From sequence record MF158042: a DNA stretch of 48,262 bases, one strand, 5' to 3'. The DNA is from Shigella phage Sd1. The notes beneath the pieces are model-generated. The model was not told the origin of the DNA and searched no databases. It saw only the letters and a list, made by a program, of their open reading frames with translations. Position 1 is the first letter of the stretch, and each line of letters begins with the position of its first letter. A program made the translations under genes and the position numbers. Shown piece by piece: positions 22,747 to 30,736 of this stretch.

Positions 22747-25713
22747 TTAACTATAACCACGCAAGAACTGGTAAGCAGTCCCGCCTTGCTGGAAGGATTG
22801 AGTAATCTCTTCCGCGATGATAACCCTGATACCAGATTCTAACTGTTTAGCGTCATTACCGGCACCACCACCAAGACCTGTCTGAACGGTAACATTCACG
22901 CCACCGACATTAACATTGCTTCCGCTAACAAGTCCACCAGTCGCATATCCAGGACCAGAACCGACAATACCTCCGTTTGCGTACCCGCGCATCAGCTTGT
23001 ACAGGTTATCCACACCAATCCTTGATGTTGCCTCTTTTGTGAATACAAACTCTCCACGATGAACTGTGCCTGCTGGCTCATATTTTCCACCATTACCAGT
23101 GTAGCCGCCAGAGGCAAAGCCAATAGAGCTAGCAATAGAGCCAATCGCGCCGCCACTACCACCAAAACTTGAGATGGTTGACTCAATTGCCTTAATCAAA
23201 AGAAGCTGAGTTGCAATGCGTGCAATCTGCTTCAAAATTGACGCGGTAAACTCACGGAAGTTGGCCTCTCCAGTAGTTACCAGGTTTGTGATCTGGTCAG
23301 TCAATCCATTGAATGCGCTCATTGCTAGCTCAGAACCAATCTGATTGAAGTTTGCTAATTCATCAGCAGTCTCAGCGAACGCAGACTTAACACCAGCTAG
23401 CCAGTTGCCACGTAACGCGTCCTCCTGGTTGTAGAAATTCTGACGAGCCTGAAGTAAAGCCTGGAAGTCAGTGTCATCTACGGAGCCTCCTTTAGAAACC
23501 TGCTGTGCTTCTAGCGCTGCCAACTCACGCCGCCTTTCAGCTTCACGTTGAGATAATCCAGCGCCAGTACTAATTGATGCCGCTTCAGCGTTAATCTGTC
23601 GAGTTTTCTTGATATTGTCATCAAGCAACTTATTGGCGCGCTCCTGCAATACAATCTGATCACCAAGCTCAGCCTTCTCTCTAGCAAGGCCAAGAATCTT
23701 ATCCTGCTGAAGTAGTAACCTTCGCTGCTCCTTTGTAATGGTGCCATCAGCAAGCCTTTCATTGAGGATAGCAAACTTAGCCTCTTCTGCGAATAGCTGC
23801 TTTCGCTCGTTACTGATTACATCACTAATCTGGCGGTGCTCCTGAAGAACCTTAAGCTGCGCCTGAAGAGCTAAAACGCCTGACTCGTAGCTGATTGTAA
23901 GGTCCCTCTGGTCCTTAACTCCTTGCTTTCTCTTCTTGTTTGCCTCCTCAATATCCTTAAGCTCCTGCTCCCTGGCCTTTCTGCGCTTCTCGAACTCAGC
24001 ATCGGATTCACCAGTTCTCTGCTGCTCTTCCTGGGTTGGGGTAACGTAACCAAGTTCACCCTTGCGAATCCTTGCATCACGTTCCGCTACGGACTTAACT
24101 AACTCTTCATTGGCTTTCTTAATTCCCTCATTCTGCTTTTCGAACTGCTGAACTAGCTCACTACCAACTCCATCAGCGCCAGGGATATTCTGGAATGCTT
24201 TAATTGTTGAGATCAGGAAGTTGTTGATCAGAACATCACCCTGGCCAATCAGCAACTGAATCTGCTCAATAGTACCAGCAACAACGTCTACTATAAGGTT
24301 TAGTGCGCCAAGCGTCCTGTTCCCGATATCCGTCCAAACCCGAGAAACGAAGTTTTTGAAGCTATCCCAAGCCTTCTCAAGCGGCGTTAGAGACTCCGCG
24401 ACTTTTGTTAAGCGATTCTCCATTACATCAGCAAATAGCTTAGTAGCCGCCGTTACAGCCTGCGTCTGACCCTCTGTAACCCTAATTTGCTCGATGTACT
24501 TAAGCTGGCCAGCGGTTAAGAAGTTAAACTGCTTATCAAGTTCAGCCAGGCCTTTGACCGGGTCATTTGCGATTTTATCGAAGTTCTTAACGATATCATC
24601 AGCGGAATCACCAGTGACTGTGGCCCAGCGCGCAGTCGCCTCAGTAATAATTGAAATCTGAGCTACCGTGCGGTTCCCACTTGCGACCAATCCATTAGCA
24701 ATCTCGTGGCCAAGACCTTGAGTTGCGCCTGCAGCCTCAGCCGCATTCCTTGCCAGTTTCTGAACTGCGCCAGCTGATAAGTTCGCTGATTGCCCGGTCA
24801 GGGTAAGCGTCTGGTTTAGCTGTGAAGTGTTCTGATAAGCCTGATAAGCAGACAATCCCAGAGCACCAAGAGCAACACCGAGAGCTCCAGCTGCGACAAC
24901 GAACGGGTTTAATGCAGCAAGTGCAAACCTGAATGTATTCGCTACGCCTCCAAAGCTATCCTTAATCTGACCGCCTTGCTGAATTGCGATTAGCCAGATT
25001 GGAATGCCGCCAGCTAATGAAGTTCCAATATCTGTAATCTGCGCTGGCAGCGTACGGATTGCGTTCTTATACTGCCCCACTGATAATCCAGAGCGCTGCA
25101 ATGCCTGAGATTGCCTTGTTAATGCTGCTGCGGATTGGTCAGCTGCCGCTCCGATTTGTGCAATAATTGGCGCCGCCTGGCTTGAAACTCCTAACTCTGC
25201 CGCCCTTAACTTTAACAACTCCTCGCGAGTTAATGTTGCCGCCTGGGCCTCAGCTTGTAGTGACTTAAGGAATCTTTCCGCTTGGGTTGCAGCTTGAGCC
25301 TTGGCTTTTGAAGCCTCGATTGCAGCCCTGCCTTCCTCAGTCAATGCGCGCTGTGAATTACGAAGCCTGTTAGTCTGAGTCTCCAGAGCCTCGCTTAAAC
25401 GGTAGAATTCAGCTTCAGGAATAACGCCAGCGGAGAAGGATTTATCCAGTGCGTCAGCTGCTTCCTGCAGTTTGCGAAGCTTTCCTGCGGTTGGATCAAT
25501 TGCGGTTTGCAACTGACGGAATGCTGTTCGCTGCTCAGAAAGATATCTGGCAGTATCGCGAGCCTGATTCTTCGCAACCAGCTCGGCGTTGACGAACTCA
25601 CTAACACCAGCTGCCGCCTGCTCATTGGCACGTTTAAATTCTTGCAGGGACTTTGTGCCCTGGTCAACCTGGCGAACGTCAACGCCAAGTGTGATACCTG
25701 CAAATTCTGCCAT
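22747..25713 (-). CDS. Tail tape measure protein
   Basis: About 990 aa, Ala/Gln/Leu-rich coiled-coil composition, follows G/GT chaperone; start at MAEFAGI with ggagg SD. Confidence 0.75.
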   Translation of the reverse strand: MAEFAGITLGVDVRQVDQGTKSLQEFKRANEQAAAGVSEFVNAELVAKNQARDTARYLSEQRTAFRQLQTAIDPTAGKLRKLQEAADALDKSFSAGVIPEAEFYRLSEALETQTNRLRNSQRALTEEGRAAIEASKAKAQAATQAERFLKSLQAEAQAATLTREELLKLRAAELGVSSQAAPIIAQIGAAADQSAAALTRQSQALQRSGLSVGQYKNAIRTLPAQITDIGTSLAGGIPIWLIAIQQGGQIKDSFGGVANTFRFALAALNPFVVAAGALGVALGALGLSAYQAYQNTSQLNQTLTLTGQSANLSAGAVQKLARNAAEAAGATQGLGHEIANGLVASGNRTVAQISIITEATARWATVTGDSADDIVKNFDKIANDPVKGLAELDKQFNFLTAGQLKYIEQIRVTEGQTQAVTAATKLFADVMENRLTKVAESLTPLEKAWDSFKNFVSRVWTDIGNRTLGALNLIVDVVAGTIEQIQLLIGQGDVLINNFLISTIKAFQNIPGADGVGSELVQQFEKQNEGIKKANEELVKSVAERDARIRKGELGYVTPTQEEQQRTGESDAEFEKRRKAREQELKDIEEANKKRKQGVKDQRDLTISYESGVLALQAQLKVLQEHRQISDVISNERKQLFAEEAKFAILNERLADGTITKEQRRLLLQQDKILGLAREKAELGDQIVLQERANKLLDDNIKKTRQINAEAASISTGAGLSQREAERRRELAALEAQQVSKGGSVDDTDFQALLQARQNFYNQEDALRGNWLAGVKSAFAETADELANFNQIGSELAMSAFNGLTDQITNLVTTGEANFREFTASILKQIARIATQLLLIKAIESTISSFGGSGGAIGSIASSIGFASGGYTGNGGKYEPAGTVHRGEFVFTKEATSRIGVDNLYKLMRGYANGGIVGSGPGYATGGLVSGSNVNVGGVNVTVQTGLGGGAGNDAKQLESGIRVIIAEEITQSFQQGGTAYQFLRGYS

Positions 25714-25722
25714 GTAACCTCC

Positions 25723-25756
25723 ATAAAAAAACCTCCACAAAGGGAGGTTATTTTTG
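25723..25756. terminator. Hairpin (acctcc-N6-ggaggt) between GT and tape measure genes
   Basis: GC stem with A-run and T-run on either side; overlaps stop codon of the GT frame. Confidence 0.5.
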
Positions 25757-26409
25757 CCTTACTTGCATCATCTCAAGTGCTTTGCACTCCAGTATTCGCA
25801 AGTCATTTAAAGTCATCTCTTTGTCCTTGACATTATACACATCAAAGAGGAAAGGGAGTACTGAATAATCTATTCCGGTAGCGCCGCTCATACCTACACG
25901 CCATTGAGTTGAAGCTGCCTGATAAACATTCCATGCAAGCATCATGTCATCATCGAAGTATAACTCTTCCGGCTCCTCATCTTCATAATCGGAACGCCGC
26001 ATGCCAATAGCTTCAAGTTCGGCGTCCGTTGGCTCTCTTTGGTATTGTAGATATACAGCGCGTTTTAGTTTTTTGCTCGCTGACCCGCCAAAGCCTGCAT
26101 ATAAGCGTTAGTCAGTGCCAGGACGGATGCCGGGAACAGGGATACCAGCTCTTCGATGTTCTCGTCGTTGAATTCTTCTTCAAGGTTCCAACCGCTGCAA
26201 ATCTCTTTAACAAAGTCAAAGTCCTTAAGGCCTTCGGTCTGGAATACTTCCTGAATCTCTTTAGCCTTGCGATGCTTTGCTGTAAAGATAACCTCAGCTT
26301 CTTCTCCGTTAATCATCTGGAATTTTACAGGTAACTTGAAGTCAGGCAATGCGCCAAGTTTGAGTTTGAATTTTGCCATTTTTATTACTCCTCTCGTAAG
26401 TTGAAGCAT
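25748..26409 (-). CDS. Tail assembly chaperone G-T fusion made by programmed -1 frameshift
   Basis: Slippery heptamer A_AAA_AAC (minus strand, about 26068-26074) immediately before the G stop codon; the -1 frame is open from there to 25748. Confidence 0.55.
26065..26379 (-). CDS. Tail assembly chaperone (G-like)
   Basis: Small acidic protein between major tail and tape measure genes; start at MAKFKL with gaggag SD. Confidence 0.6.
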   Translation of the reverse strand: MAKFKLKLGALPDFKLPVKFQMINGEEAEVIFTAKHRKAKEIQEVFQTEGLKDFDFVKEICSGWNLEEEFNDENIEELVSLFPASVLALTNAYMQALAGQRAKN

Positions 26410-26413
26410 GATT

Positions 26414-26444
26414 ATAAAATAAAAAAGCCCTCATTGCGAGGGCC
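26414..26444 (-). terminator. Rho-independent terminator after major tail protein gene
   Basis: gccctc/gagggc stem followed by TTTTTTATTTT on the minus strand. Confidence 0.65.
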
Positions 26445-26451
26445 TTGTAAC

Positions 26452-27102
26452 TTATGCTGCCAGGAAGCTGTAGCGTCCACGTACCGTAATTGCTACGGAT
26501 ACAGTTTCGATTTCGTTAACGCTTACATTTGGAGTTTCGTTGAAAGCAACGGTACCAGTCCACAGGCGAACTTCGCTAGCTTTTGGTACATATGCACGAA
26601 TCGCAGTAACCTTGCCACTTTCATCCAGTTCACGAAGAATTGGGTAGATTGGGTTATTGTATTCATGAGCAAAGGTATAAGTCGTGTTTACTGCAGACTT
26701 GTAGGTAGGAATCTGCTGTTCACGGTCATCGCTCAAGCACTGATAGGTAACGAACTGCTGCTCACCACCGTCAGTAGAAACATCCTGAATACAAGGCATT
26801 TCAAACCAGGTGAGAACCTTGGCGATAGTTGCCGTGCCACCAGCCGGGAATTTCAGGGTTGAAGTGGTGTCGATACCTTCAACAGTGATAGTCGTAGAAG
26901 TGGTAGACACTACGCGAAGCTGCTTATCAGCCAGGTTAGACCAGGTTGCAGATTCAACAACAATGAAATCGCCAGTTGCGAAAGTTGAAGCATCAGCAAC
27001 CGTCATTACCGGCTGAACTGCGTTGGTGATTGCTGTAACATTTACCGCGTCAGAGCGCGAACCCTCAATAAAAATTTGACTGCCATTTGCAAGGTGAGCC
27101 AT
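26452..27102 (-). CDS. Major tail protein
   Basis: Position upstream of G/GT and tape measure; Thr/Val/Ser-rich beta composition. Confidence 0.6.
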   Translation of the reverse strand: MAHLANGSQIFIEGSRSDAVNVTAITNAVQPVMTVADASTFATGDFIVVESATWSNLADKQLRVVSTTSTTITVEGIDTTSTLKFPAGGTATIAKVLTWFEMPCIQDVSTDGGEQQFVTYQCLSDDREQQIPTYKSAVNTTYTFAHEYNNPIYPILRELDESGKVTAIRAYVPKASEVRLWTGTVAFNETPNVSVNEIETVSVAITVRGRYSFLAA

Positions 27103-27116
27103 TTAAATCTCCTTAA

Positions 27117-27515
27117 TTAATCCATACGTACGTAGAATCGGACAGGAATGAACCAGCCGGATTGTGATTTTACTGGAGGAAACACAGAACCGCCTTCATA
27201 AATGTATCCGCTGTCAAGCATTGTACCATCGGCGAAAGCTTCTGACAATCGCCCAGCCAATTGGCGAGGCCTATCAGTGCCCTCACCTGGTGAAAAGAAT
27301 ATAGAGACCTGAACCATGCCTACGTAATAACGGCATGTTCGCTGCAATCCCCATGTCACGCTATCAACCTCCGTGTAGTCAAACTTCAACCACATAGAGC
27401 CATTACTAGGTGGCGTGAATCCGCAGTTCTCATAAGCCACTGGAAGCCCACCTGCAATATCAACCGCTGCATCACTAACCAGCTTTCTTGCCGCTACCAT
27501 CATTTCATAGTGCAT
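27117..27515 (-). CDS. Putative tail terminator/completion protein
   Basis: Position immediately upstream of major tail gene. Confidence 0.4.
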   Translation of the reverse strand: MHYEMMVAARKLVSDAAVDIAGGLPVAYENCGFTPPSNGSMWLKFDYTEVDSVTWGLQRTCRYYVGMVQVSIFFSPGEGTDRPRQLAGRLSEAFADGTMLDSGYIYEGGSVFPPVKSQSGWFIPVRFYVRMD

Positions 27516-28736: not shown

Positions 28737-29033
28737 TTATTTGTAGTCGCCGCCATTCTCAGCTTCATCAATAGTCTTTGGTTGCTTCTTAGGCTTAGCC
28801 TTGTCTTTAACTTCCTGCTCGATTTCTTTAGTTGCCTTGTGGTCATCCTCAACCTCAAGCTTGCCTTCAGCTACCAAAATCTTTAAGCCAACGGATAACT
28901 CCTCAACCTCGATAGTATCGCCTGGAAGATAATCTTTTGCGCCAAGACGGATAACACAAGCACCTTTATGTAACAGTTTCATTCTTTCCTCCTTTGTTTC
29001 GATTTTCAAATGATAACACACAAACTTAATCAA
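28737..29033 (-). CDS. Hypothetical protein
   Basis: ORF with Lys/Glu-rich C-terminus. Confidence 0.35.
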   Translation of the reverse strand: MIKFVCYHLKIETKEERMKLLHKGACVIRLGAKDYLPGDTIEVEELSVGLKILVAEGKLEVEDDHKATKEIEQEVKDKAKPKKQPKTIDEAENGGDYK

Positions 29034-29616
29034 CTAAAGAGTCTCTGTTGTGATCATCAATCCTCGCGTACTCCCCGTTCAGCTCAATGCTTTTCATCAT
29101 GTATGCGCTCGCAGCCTCTTCTGGAGTAAGGAAGCAGCCTATGTGAATCTCCTGGTAATTATGCGTAATCCTTGCCGTCCATTTACCTATCTTTTTATTG
29201 TACCTCACACCTTTTATGCCGCTAGTGTTTGTTGAGTACTTACCCTTGTTTGCTGAGTTAGCTTTCGTGCTAGAGTCCCTAAGGTTTTCTATCTTGTCGT
29301 TTAGGCTATTGCCATCAACATGATCTATCTCACCGCAAGGCCATCTTTTATTGTGTATAGCCCACTTCACCCTTGATGCTATGAATGTTCTATCTTTCCC
29401 GTCAACCCTCATTGAGAAAACAAATCTCAGAGAGCCATCGGATGTACTAACCGACTCACACCCAACATATTTACCAGCATATTTTGCATTGAATATTGAG
29501 TCACCCCTGCATGTTACAACCCTACTGCGCCAAGTCATTCTGGATTCGTTTGGGTTGGATTCAATCCGGCTAATTAAAAGCTCCAGCAAATCATCTGTTT
29601 CTAACTTTCCCGCCAT
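29026..29616 (-). CDS. HNH endonuclease with AP2-like domain (second paralog)
   Basis: GEIDHVDGNSLNDKIENLR (HNH) followed by GIKGVRYNKKIGKWTARITHNYQEIHIGCF (AP2-like); ggaggg SD. Confidence 0.7.
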   Translation of the reverse strand: MAGKLETDDLLELLISRIESNPNESRMTWRSRVVTCRGDSIFNAKYAGKYVGCESVSTSDGSLRFVFSMRVDGKDRTFIASRVKWAIHNKRWPCGEIDHVDGNSLNDKIENLRDSSTKANSANKGKYSTNTSGIKGVRYNKKIGKWTARITHNYQEIHIGCFLTPEEAASAYMMKSIELNGEYARIDDHNRDSLVD

Positions 29617-29689: not shown

Positions 29690-30637
29690 TTAAGCAAAAG
29701 TAATGCCCTTCATGACAGCCATCGTTAAAGGCCTAAACACGATCAGACCAGTTGCTTTAGAAGTCACTGGAACGCGGAAGTGCAGGTCTCGCGGCTGAGC
29801 AGGCAGAGCGTTTGTCGGCTCGGTGATCTCGATCGCCATGTTGTTAGCGTCTTTCTCATAAGCGATAGCTGCAGAGGTACCAGTTCCATTGTAATCATTC
29901 AGGTACTGAACAAACTCAACGGTTACGCCGCTATTGTTCTGGCGGAAGAATTCACCATAGCTAACAGACGTGCCAGGAACCAGGTTCTGCATAATACGAC
30001 GAGCGGTAGTAGGAAGAAGCAGGTGCGTAGCGCGGTGCTGACCGTTAGTTGAAGTCTCGATAATATCCAGCAGGCTTGTAATATCGCTTACCGCTGTAGT
30101 AGGTTGAGACCATGAGCCACCGCTAACAACGTTGTTGATATTTGGATAGTCGAACACGCTAGGGATTCCGTGAACGGTAGAGCCTGACCATACCAGTTTA
30201 TCAAGAAGCTTGTCGTGCGCTTCGAAAGCCAGAGACTGCTTGCGAGCAGACAGTGACTGACCAGTAGCCTGACCAACTTTAATTTCATCGATAGAAATCA
30301 GGAAAGCGTTACCGAAACGGAAAACTTTACCCTGGCGTTCAGTTGCCAAAGCATCAACCAGCGGCAGGTCATCAGTGTAGTCAGCTACGATCTGAGCAAT
30401 TCCAACACCATCAAATACCGGATACTCAAAGTACTTAGCGTAGCCAGGGATTTCATTGCTAACAGGGAACAGGTTTACTACGGAGTTCTGATCGTACTCA
30501 GTTTCGTAAGCTTTATTCAGGCTTGCAGTGAGCTGCTTCACGGTCCAGATACCAGCCGCGTCGGCTTTATCAACACCCATTGCGCGCAGGTGGTTAGTAA
30601 TCTTTTCTTGCTCGAAAGCGTCAAGTTTGATAGTCAT
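29690..30637 (-). CDS. Putative major capsid protein (start uncertain, 30637 or 30649)
   Basis: About 315 aa; sits in head module downstream of protease/scaffold and small Gly-rich protein; followed by strong terminator. Confidence 0.5.
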   Translation of the reverse strand: MTIKLDAFEQEKITNHLRAMGVDKADAAGIWTVKQLTASLNKAYETEYDQNSVVNLFPVSNEIPGYAKYFEYPVFDGVGIAQIVADYTDDLPLVDALATERQGKVFRFGNAFLISIDEIKVGQATGQSLSARKQSLAFEAHDKLLDKLVWSGSTVHGIPSVFDYPNINNVVSGGSWSQPTTAVSDITSLLDIIETSTNGQHRATHLLLPTTARRIMQNLVPGTSVSYGEFFRQNNSGVTVEFVQYLNDYNGTGTSAAIAYEKDANNMAIEITEPTNALPAQPRDLHFRVPVTSKATGLIVFRPLTMAVMKGITFA

Positions 30638-30736
30638 ATTAAGATGCATCCTTTTGTTTATGAGTTTACGTGTCAATTATACACGAGATTTTGATTGGAA
30701 CAATAGGCGATTCCTTTCGCCTTTAACTTTAATCCA

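Follow-up and report, generated by a model that had tools for sequence, protein, structure and literature searches.

The window analysed here is the whole 48,262-nucleotide stretch of DNA from Shigella phage Sd1 (sequence record MF158042), a T1-like siphovirus of the Drexlerviridae that is close to the Rogunavirinae. Its tail genes lie on the minus strand, and Pfam assignments give the order tail terminator, tube, G, T, tape measure and M-like minor tail protein (Table 1), the same order as that of the lambda tail genes U-V-G-T-H-M. The region around G and T shares 85-92% nucleotide identity with tail modules of other Drexlerviridae (Escherichia, Klebsiella and Shigella phages), the nearest matches being the Rogunavirinae phiEB49, Opt-79 and C119 (also e4/1c and Rogue1). 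G and T sit between the tube gene (Phage_tail_3) and the tape measure gene, which is the position expected of a G/GT pair of tail assembly chaperones. The terminator-like hairpin that overlaps the T stop (Table 1) has an equivalent in the annotation of Klebsiella phage Skenny, a terminator after the GT CDS.

Table 1. Features of the G/T region of the window; all coordinates refer to the window.
Feature	Coordinates	Strand	Basis or remark
Tail terminator gene	27515..27117	-	Pfam
Major tail tube protein gene, directly upstream of G	26452..27102	-	Pfam Phage_tail_3, E=2e-70
Terminator-like hairpin with T run, separating tube gene and G	26424..26446	-	Skenny has terminators annotated at the equivalent place
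Shine-Dalgarno sequence GAGAGGAG of G, 8 nt ahead of ATG 26379	26388..26395	-	Read from the sequence
Gene G, tail assembly chaperone, 104 aa and TAA (26067..26065)	26065..26379	-	Product of standard decoding
TAA closing the -1 frame upstream	26108..26110	-	Confines the shift to 13 codons
Slippery heptamer A_AAA_AAC in X_XXY_YYZ phase, zero-frame TAA directly after; proposed -1 shift site	26068..26074	-	Phase check
Predicted GT fusion, 210 aa, joining 26379..26068 to 26068..25748	25748..26379	-	phrog_17368; orthologous join in Skenny
T-like extension in the -1 frame, 106 codons (LKRAVYLQYQ...MQVRQK) and stop 25750..25748	25748..26068	-	Translation
ATG taken by ORF callers as the start of an 84-aa 'T' ORF	26000..26002	-	No Shine-Dalgarno sequence, not conserved
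Terminator-like hairpin (CCTCC...GGAGG and T7)	25730..25749	-	Overlaps the T stop, precedes the tape measure start
Tape measure gene, 988 aa, lambda-H-like, directly downstream of T	22747..25713	-	TMP_2, E=8e-59, and Tape_meas_lam_C, E=3e-17

The G protein is a member of the Phage_TAC_4 family (PF08748; E=3.8e-38; 130.9 bits against a cut-off of 21.1), its residues 1-104 aligning with positions 1-124 of the 124-position profile. The CDSs labelled 'tape measure chaperone' in relatives are equal to G in length (315 nt, 104 aa). The original prediction had set the upper limit of the region at 26409, where the open frame has its first ATG; translation of G in fact begins at ATG 26379, which is preceded by the Shine-Dalgarno sequence and yields the 104-aa form found in relatives.

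On the minus strand, the 3' end of G reads ...CAG CGA GCA AAA AAC TAA. The first A of AAAAAAC is also the last base of GCA, and the zero-frame reading is A_AAA_AAC. The original prediction, which had noted the heptamer in the context GCA-AAA-AAC-TAA, was verified in both position (26074..26068) and phase. It had also called the heptamer a canonical slippery site; the phase is indeed the right one, but the term needs qualifying, as A_AAA_AAC reportedly shifts much less readily than A_AAA_AAG in E. coli (PMC5009743). Because the -1 frame is closed upstream by a TAA, any shift must fall within 13 codons, and A_AAA_AAC is the sole slippery heptamer in this overlap. The string AAAAAAC occurs 15 times in the window, counting both strands. 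Only the copy in G stands in phase where a long ORF ends, with 119 open codons ahead of it, and also abuts a stop codon and leads into a long -1 extension. An SD-like sequence, GGCGGGT, 9 nt upstream of the heptamer was considered as an internal stimulator and was not counted: its G-rich bases form Ala-Gly codons and vary synonymously among relatives.

Downstream of the heptamer, the -1 frame had been predicted to stay open for about 107 codons into the ORF at 25748-26002. The count gave 106 sense codons with the listed ORF in frame. A -1 stop between 26068 and 26002 was looked for and none was found, the frame being open to 25750..25748; the distance from the G stop to ATG 26002 was likewise confirmed as 62 nt (26064..26003). 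In the GT reading, the C at 26068 is read twice and the extension begins LKRAVYLQYQREPTDAELEAIGMRRSDYEDEE...; written from the slip to its end, it is LKRAVYLQYQREPTDAELEAIG-MRRSDYEDEE...MQVRQK (106 sense codons). The extension is a DUF1799 domain (PF08809; E=8.3e-14; 52 bits against a cut-off of 26), with extension residues 21-101 covering positions 1-80 of the 80-position profile. It also matches phrog_680 (E=1e-34) from extension residue 9, upstream of the ATG, which is residue 23. The complete fusion aligns end to end with phrog_17368 of the PHROGs collection (query 1-210, profile 1-213 of 213, E=3.8e-87), and fused products therefore already form a family. A protein database search with the fusion returned a single match, a 123-aa DUF1799 protein, and a PDB sequence search returned no match.

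The arrangement is conserved well beyond the closest relatives. A tblastn search of a phage collection with the GT fusion matched 1082 records, 852 of which carry most of the query, and every full-length match among the 60 listed rows had G and T split into two pieces in different frames. The T frame was -1 relative to G in all 31 loci of a first set, from near-identical to ~30% identical sequences. Peptide patterns well away from the slip site, scanned against IMG/VR, identified 80 distinct relatives, and the -1 relation of T to G, which in the window comes with a 13-codon overlap, holds in 79 of them. The exception (L080) has a 5-A run, one base shorter, that puts G into the +1 frame; this is probably a homopolymer error. 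Most of the 80 relatives carry A_AAA_AAC with an adjacent stop (58/80). The others have A_AAA_GTT or A_AAA_GCC followed by TAA (16/80) or A_AAG_GTC followed by TAA (5/80), so that A_AAR at the penultimate codon is the sole element common to 79 of the 80. At the same position, 16 distant relatives have G_GGA_AAC and a stop (12 on viral contigs of 68-107 kb and 4 on shorter fragments).

The pattern of substitutions provides further evidence. Pairwise codon differences were scored for their synonymous share in the window and 79 of the 80 relatives (80 sequences in total). In the 9 codons before the site, this share was 0.57 in frame 0 and 0.03 in frame -1. Over the 20 codons after the stop, the shares were 0.035 in frame 0 and 0.49 in frame -1, and the 62-nt 'gap' taken by itself carries the same -1-frame synonymous signature. 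Given this switch from frame 0 to frame -1, the translation under selection therefore changes frame at the heptamer. As sequence evidence for the slip site, these comparative data are much stronger than any estimate based on chance.

Programmed -1 ribosomal frameshifting at A_AAA_AAC, yielding G as the major and GT as the minor product, is very probably the explanation of this locus. Gene order, protein families, the -1 relation, the frame switch of selection and the join annotated in Skenny all agree with the G/GT chaperone frameshift that the original prediction had proposed upstream of the tape measure gene. Most ribosomes would terminate at the TAA and release the 104-aa G protein, and a minority would slip one base back on A_AAA_AAC (26074..26068). 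The slipped ribosomes would then read CTA AAA CGC... in the -1 frame to 25748, giving a 210-aa GT protein composed of the G domain and a DUF1799 'T' domain. We infer that slippage occurs, and likewise its frequency, the roles of G and T and the identity of the slipping tRNAs. In lambda, tail assembly needs both G and GT, and virions contain neither; the G part binds the tape measure protein and the T part the tube protein (PMC5009743). By analogy, G and the G part of GT would form a coat on the tape measure protein, recruitment of the tube protein would fall to the T part, and neither G nor GT would end up in the virion. With one ribosome-binding site for both products, the G:GT ratio would be fixed by the slip frequency.

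Two other accounts of how T is expressed were weighed against the frameshift. G and T might be separate proteins, with an 84-aa T initiated at ATG 26002, perhaps by re-initiation after the G stop. This is very unlikely. The ATG does exist, and a 255-nt CDS is annotated there in Opt-79, C119 and phiEB49, but no Shine-Dalgarno sequence was found in the 20 nt upstream of it and it stands 62 nt from the G stop. The ATG is present only in the Rogunavirinae-like subset; in T1, herni, mar001J1, Skenny, Tempevirinae-like phages, Webervirus and most IMG/VR relatives the position codes for Leu instead. In relatives without it, the first in-frame start is codon 41, which has no Shine-Dalgarno sequence and lies inside DUF1799. 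Some records accordingly have no T gene in their annotation, and others call short fragments. Extension residues 1-22 (LKRAVYL.YQ..PTD.EL.A.G) are conserved as protein although the ATG that follows them is absent in most relatives; purifying selection acts on these 22 codons in the -1 frame, and the DUF1799 and phrog_680 matches both begin upstream of the ATG. The downstream ORF is one without a start of its own, the stretch ahead of the ATG being coding in the -1 frame, and ATG 26002 is probably an internal Met codon of GT. An even more improbable account is transcriptional slippage on the A6 run, in which one extra A in some mRNAs would let ordinary translation produce GT. Six consecutive A residues are present at the site, but transcriptional slippage is generally productive only on runs of about 8-9 or more. 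The 5-A run of L080 indicates that run length is unstable, at least in sequence data, and polymerase slippage is a known route to a change of frame (PMC5009743). Against this, homologous -1 sites with 3-4 A residues (A_AAG_GTC, A_AAA_GTT and G_GGA_AAC) make polymerase slippage implausible, and what is conserved is the in-phase position and the adjacent stop, which are relevant to ribosomes and irrelevant to a polymerase.

The ribosomal frameshift itself could proceed in more than one way. Given a frameshift, we lean towards a slip after Asn has been decoded, either as tandem slippage of the Lys and Asn tRNAs or as a slip of P-site tRNA-Asn with the slow-to-decode TAA in the A site. Such a slip predicts the junction ...QRAKN-LKRAVY..., and the full heptamer would permit tandem slippage, AAA to AAA and AAC to AAA. 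A slip after Asn is favoured because 'AAC plus stop' is common to most T1-like relatives and to the distant G_GGA_AAC relatives. The conserved stop abutting the heptamer fits a P-site slip during slow termination. Such a 'shifty stop' is an idea reportedly put forward by Weiss et al. in 1987 that may apply to this -1 site. Alternatively, the same -1 frameshift could involve a single tRNA-Lys that moves from AAA (26073..26071) to AAA (26074..26072) before AAC is decoded. The junction would then be ...QRAK-KLKRAVY..., with Lys in place of Asn, the family element would be A_AAR, and the full heptamer would be incidental. The near-universal A_AAR speaks for such a slip, as it is the only feature that 79 of the 80 relatives share, and the sites of Rogunavirus (A_AAG_GTC) and Webervirus (A_AAA_GTT/GCC) allow no other. 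Z_ZZN tetranucleotides, A_AAG especially, are moreover established minimal -1 sites in E. coli, an example being G_CGA_AAG of IS1222 (PMC5009743). However, the distant relatives use G_GGA_AAC and a stop without an A_AAR Lys codon, which leaves AAC plus stop as the common part, and in 58 of the 80 relatives the full heptamer and its abutting stop persist despite many synonymous changes nearby. The single-tRNA slip is a possibility to which we give distinctly less credence. Since tandem slippage is impossible at A_AAG_GTC and A_AAA_GTT, these sites weaken the tandem detail of the preferred slip after Asn; they do not weaken the frameshift itself.

A stimulatory RNA structure downstream of the heptamer, which the original prediction had suggested looking for, did not emerge in the window: folds of 121, 70 and 48 nt gave nothing significant. 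The minimum free energy was no better than that of shuffled sequences (z=-0.10 for 121 nt, z=+1.0 for 70 nt and -7.4 kcal/mol for the first 48 nt). Neither a stem-loop nor a pseudoknot was found 5-9 nt after the heptamer of the window, the spacing looked for in a 3' stimulator, and an Rfam scan of 25600..26500 returned matches at chance level only. A 9-bp stem picked out by eye at ~26028..25985 was rejected; it starts 39 nt from the heptamer, too far for a canonical stimulator. With no significant structure in the window, the efficiency of the shift may therefore be low. The lambda G:GT ratio is ~30:1 (PMC5009743), and the low shiftiness of A_AAA_AAC would suit a similarly low GT fraction.

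Many relatives have a hairpin, GGGCGGUU...AAGCCGCCC, located 6-7 nt after the heptamer, with folding z-scores of -2 to -3.3. It is formed by the T-frame codons for Arg-Ala-Val and Lys-Pro-Pro, and the window and the Rogunavirus group do not have it because Arg-Glu-Pro is encoded there. Among the A_AAA_AAC sequences, 39 of 59 fold at -14 kcal/mol or below within the first 48 nt. Pair counting across 23 diverse sequences gave no convincing covariation in the hairpin: 70.7% of cells were paired, compared with 68.7% in shuffles, and 3 pairs showed double changes, compared with 2.3 in shuffles. The hairpin of the relatives is thus a candidate stimulator only, and one that is absent from the window.

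Comparison with characterized systems places the locus among known G/GT pairs. In lambda, too, the genes lie between the major tail and tape measure genes, the second ORF has no start of its own and begins as a -1-frame overlap with the first, and a slippery heptamer near the end of G has no evident downstream structure. The lambda heptamer, G_GGA_AAG, precedes the G stop by 5 codons and its extension has 144 codons, whereas A_AAA_AAC of the window abuts the stop and is followed by a 106-codon extension. The families also differ, lambda having Phage_TAC_2 for G and Phage_tail_T for T and the window Phage_TAC_4 and DUF1799. Neither G nor T of the window gave a Pfam match to PF06894 or PF06223, or a significant BLASTP alignment with lambda gpG or gpT. 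Judged by Pfam and BLASTP, the locus lies outside the sequence families of lambda, and its resemblance to lambda would be one of position and proposed mechanism.

The closest documented counterpart is Skenny (MK931444), a Webervirus whose orthologous Drexlerviridae genes are annotated with a joined CDS, 'tail assembly chaperone frameshift product', that shares its RBS with the short form. GT proteins of the Skenny/Stevie type are ~46% identical to the GT of the window. The Skenny site is GCA AAA GTT TAA, in which the A_AAA tetranucleotide is followed by a stop one codon further on, in contrast to the full heptamer and adjacent stop of the window. The genome papers of Citrobacter phage Stevie and of Skenny describe a translational frameshift of the tape measure chaperones as conserved (PMC4319613, PMC6763657). 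The same shift sequence has been proposed in other viruses: in gp12/gp13 of Acinetobacter phage Loki, AAAAAAC directly before the chaperone stop was proposed as the shift site (PMC5313236), and A_AAA_AAC is listed as the g-t shift site of the haloarchaeal virus HCTV-2 (PMC5009743). These viruses belong to unrelated hosts and phage groups, and their likeness to the window is confined to the shift sequence. In the literature searched, no protein-level report of a GT product was found for any Drexlerviridae phage, the joined annotations and the papers being inferences.

The site is thus already annotated and published for T1-like phages, through the joined CDS of Skenny and through Stevie, and corresponds to the ordinary G/GT mechanism of long-tailed phages. 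What the analysis provides is the correct gene model for the locus, a short G CDS and a joined GT CDS (26379..26068 joined to 26068..25748). This G and GT model replaces two chaperone genes separated by a 62-nt gap, which is the annotation in most deposited relatives. It would also add a further instance of the conserved G/GT mechanism, which sets the ratio of two chaperones for correct tail length.

At one orthologous position, the Drexlerviridae have several forms of the site. The heptamer with an adjacent stop and a hairpin occurs in many Tempevirinae/Tunavirinae-like phages, the heptamer and adjacent stop without the hairpin in the window and a few others, a bare A_AAG in Rogunavirus and a bare A_AAA in Webervirus. 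That this amounts to turnover of the recoding signal within the family is a tentative suggestion, and one we think less likely than not to hold. If the variants give different G:GT ratios, or if all share a single-tRNA-Lys slip, they would form a naturally occurring set of variants in which the tuning of bacterial -1 sites could be dissected, and the set would also test how far tail assembly tolerates changes in the G:GT ratio. Several shift-site solutions at the same codon could in this way serve the study of shift-efficiency tuning in E. coli phages.

The Rogunavirinae (phiEB49, Opt-79, C119, e4/1c and Rogue1) share with the window the same 62-nt gap and ATG, and a G protein identical save for its last residue. 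They differ in the site, GCA AAG GTC TAA, which is A_AAG_GTC instead of A_AAA_AAC, and in their annotation, which has two separate CDSs and no join. Over the slip site, the window and these nearest relatives are separated by three substitutions clustered in four bases, in genes whose G proteins are otherwise identical, and the phage collection held no record more than 91% identical to the window over the 101 nt around the site. This difference in shift site between the phage and its nearest relatives, within a family of diverse site architectures, is the only mildly unusual aspect of the locus.

The slip site and its immediate surroundings were compared between the window and its relatives, which included both GenBank phages and IMG/VR viral contigs. 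A distant set (L014-L029) consists of IMG/VR viral contigs, twelve of 68-107 kb and four fragments of 4-24 kb, each encoding a G homologue (27-44% identity) as well as a homologue of the T domain. In all of them, G ends in G_GGA_AAC with a stop codon (TAA, TGA or TAG) immediately after it. Judged from this shared ending, the "XXA_AAC + stop" arrangement long predates the T1-like group.

Closer to the window, the slip site itself has diverged. At 26074..26062 the window reads GCA AAA AAC TAA AAC, whereas its nearest relatives among the Rogunavirinae (L001-L003 and L008-L012) read GCA AAG GTC TAA AGC. The slip site thus carries three differences in a stretch of four bases, and one more lies just past the stop. 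The remainder of the G protein sequence is the same in the window and these relatives. Because the window's A_AAA_AAC heptamer is also found in relatives more distant than the Rogunavirinae, it looks ancestral, and the A_AAG site of the Rogunavirus group looks derived.

A single viral contig, L080 (IMGVR_UViG_2974632794_000001), is exceptional. At about position 1005 of its locus it reads GTAAAAACTAA, with five A residues rather than six; as a result, G continues for 24 codons in the +1 frame and T does not lie at -1. The five-A run is likely a homopolymer sequencing error, although this contig is possibly a natural mutant.

Downstream of the heptamer, folding predicts a hairpin that is both stable and rich in GC, GGGCGGUU..CUG-loop-CAG..AAGCCGCCC, in many Tempevirinae/Tunavirinae-like relatives (loci L052, L057, L061, L066, L067, L076, L077, L079, L081, L096 and L098, among others). 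It begins 6-7 nt past A_AAA_AAC, which is the canonical spacing; folds of 70 nt have energies between -18 and -24 kcal/mol and z-scores of roughly -2 to -3.3. Counts of paired positions gave no clear sign of covariation in this candidate stem. This GC-rich hairpin is absent from the equivalent position in the window (about 26061..26030), and likewise from the region after the slip site in the Rogunavirus group and a few other relatives.

The G-T pair is also flanked on both sides by terminator-like hairpins (see table), and terminators are annotated at both equivalent places in the Webervirus Skenny. This bracketing may attenuate expression of the chaperone and tape measure genes relative to that of the tube protein.

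Features of the window surrounding the chaperone locus and the putative homing endonuclease ORF
Feature	Position	Strand	Details
Terminator-like hairpin + T run	26446..26424	-	3' of tube gene
Terminator-like hairpin + T run	25749..25730	both	overlaps T stop, just before tape measure SD and start
196-aa ORF	29026..29616	-	HNH_3 (E=1e-6); AP2 (E=7e-8, slightly under gathering score)
Major capsid gene	30676..29690		flanks 196-aa ORF
DUF7444 gene	29033..28737		flanks 196-aa ORF

Annotation of the chaperone locus is inconsistent among the GenBank relatives examined: some records carry two separate "tape measure chaperone" CDSs, others G only or short T fragments, and RefSeq copies name both ORFs "tail length tape measure protein". 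Among these relatives, the joined frameshift product appears only in CPT-annotated records such as Skenny. A search of a protein database (5.8 billion sequences) with the 210-aa GT fusion returned a single homologue, a 123-aa DUF1799 protein, whereas more than 1000 phage records encode relatives; the family is evidently missed by, or missing from, the word-index protein search.

Elsewhere in the window, the domain content of the 196-aa ORF makes it look like a homing endonuclease.
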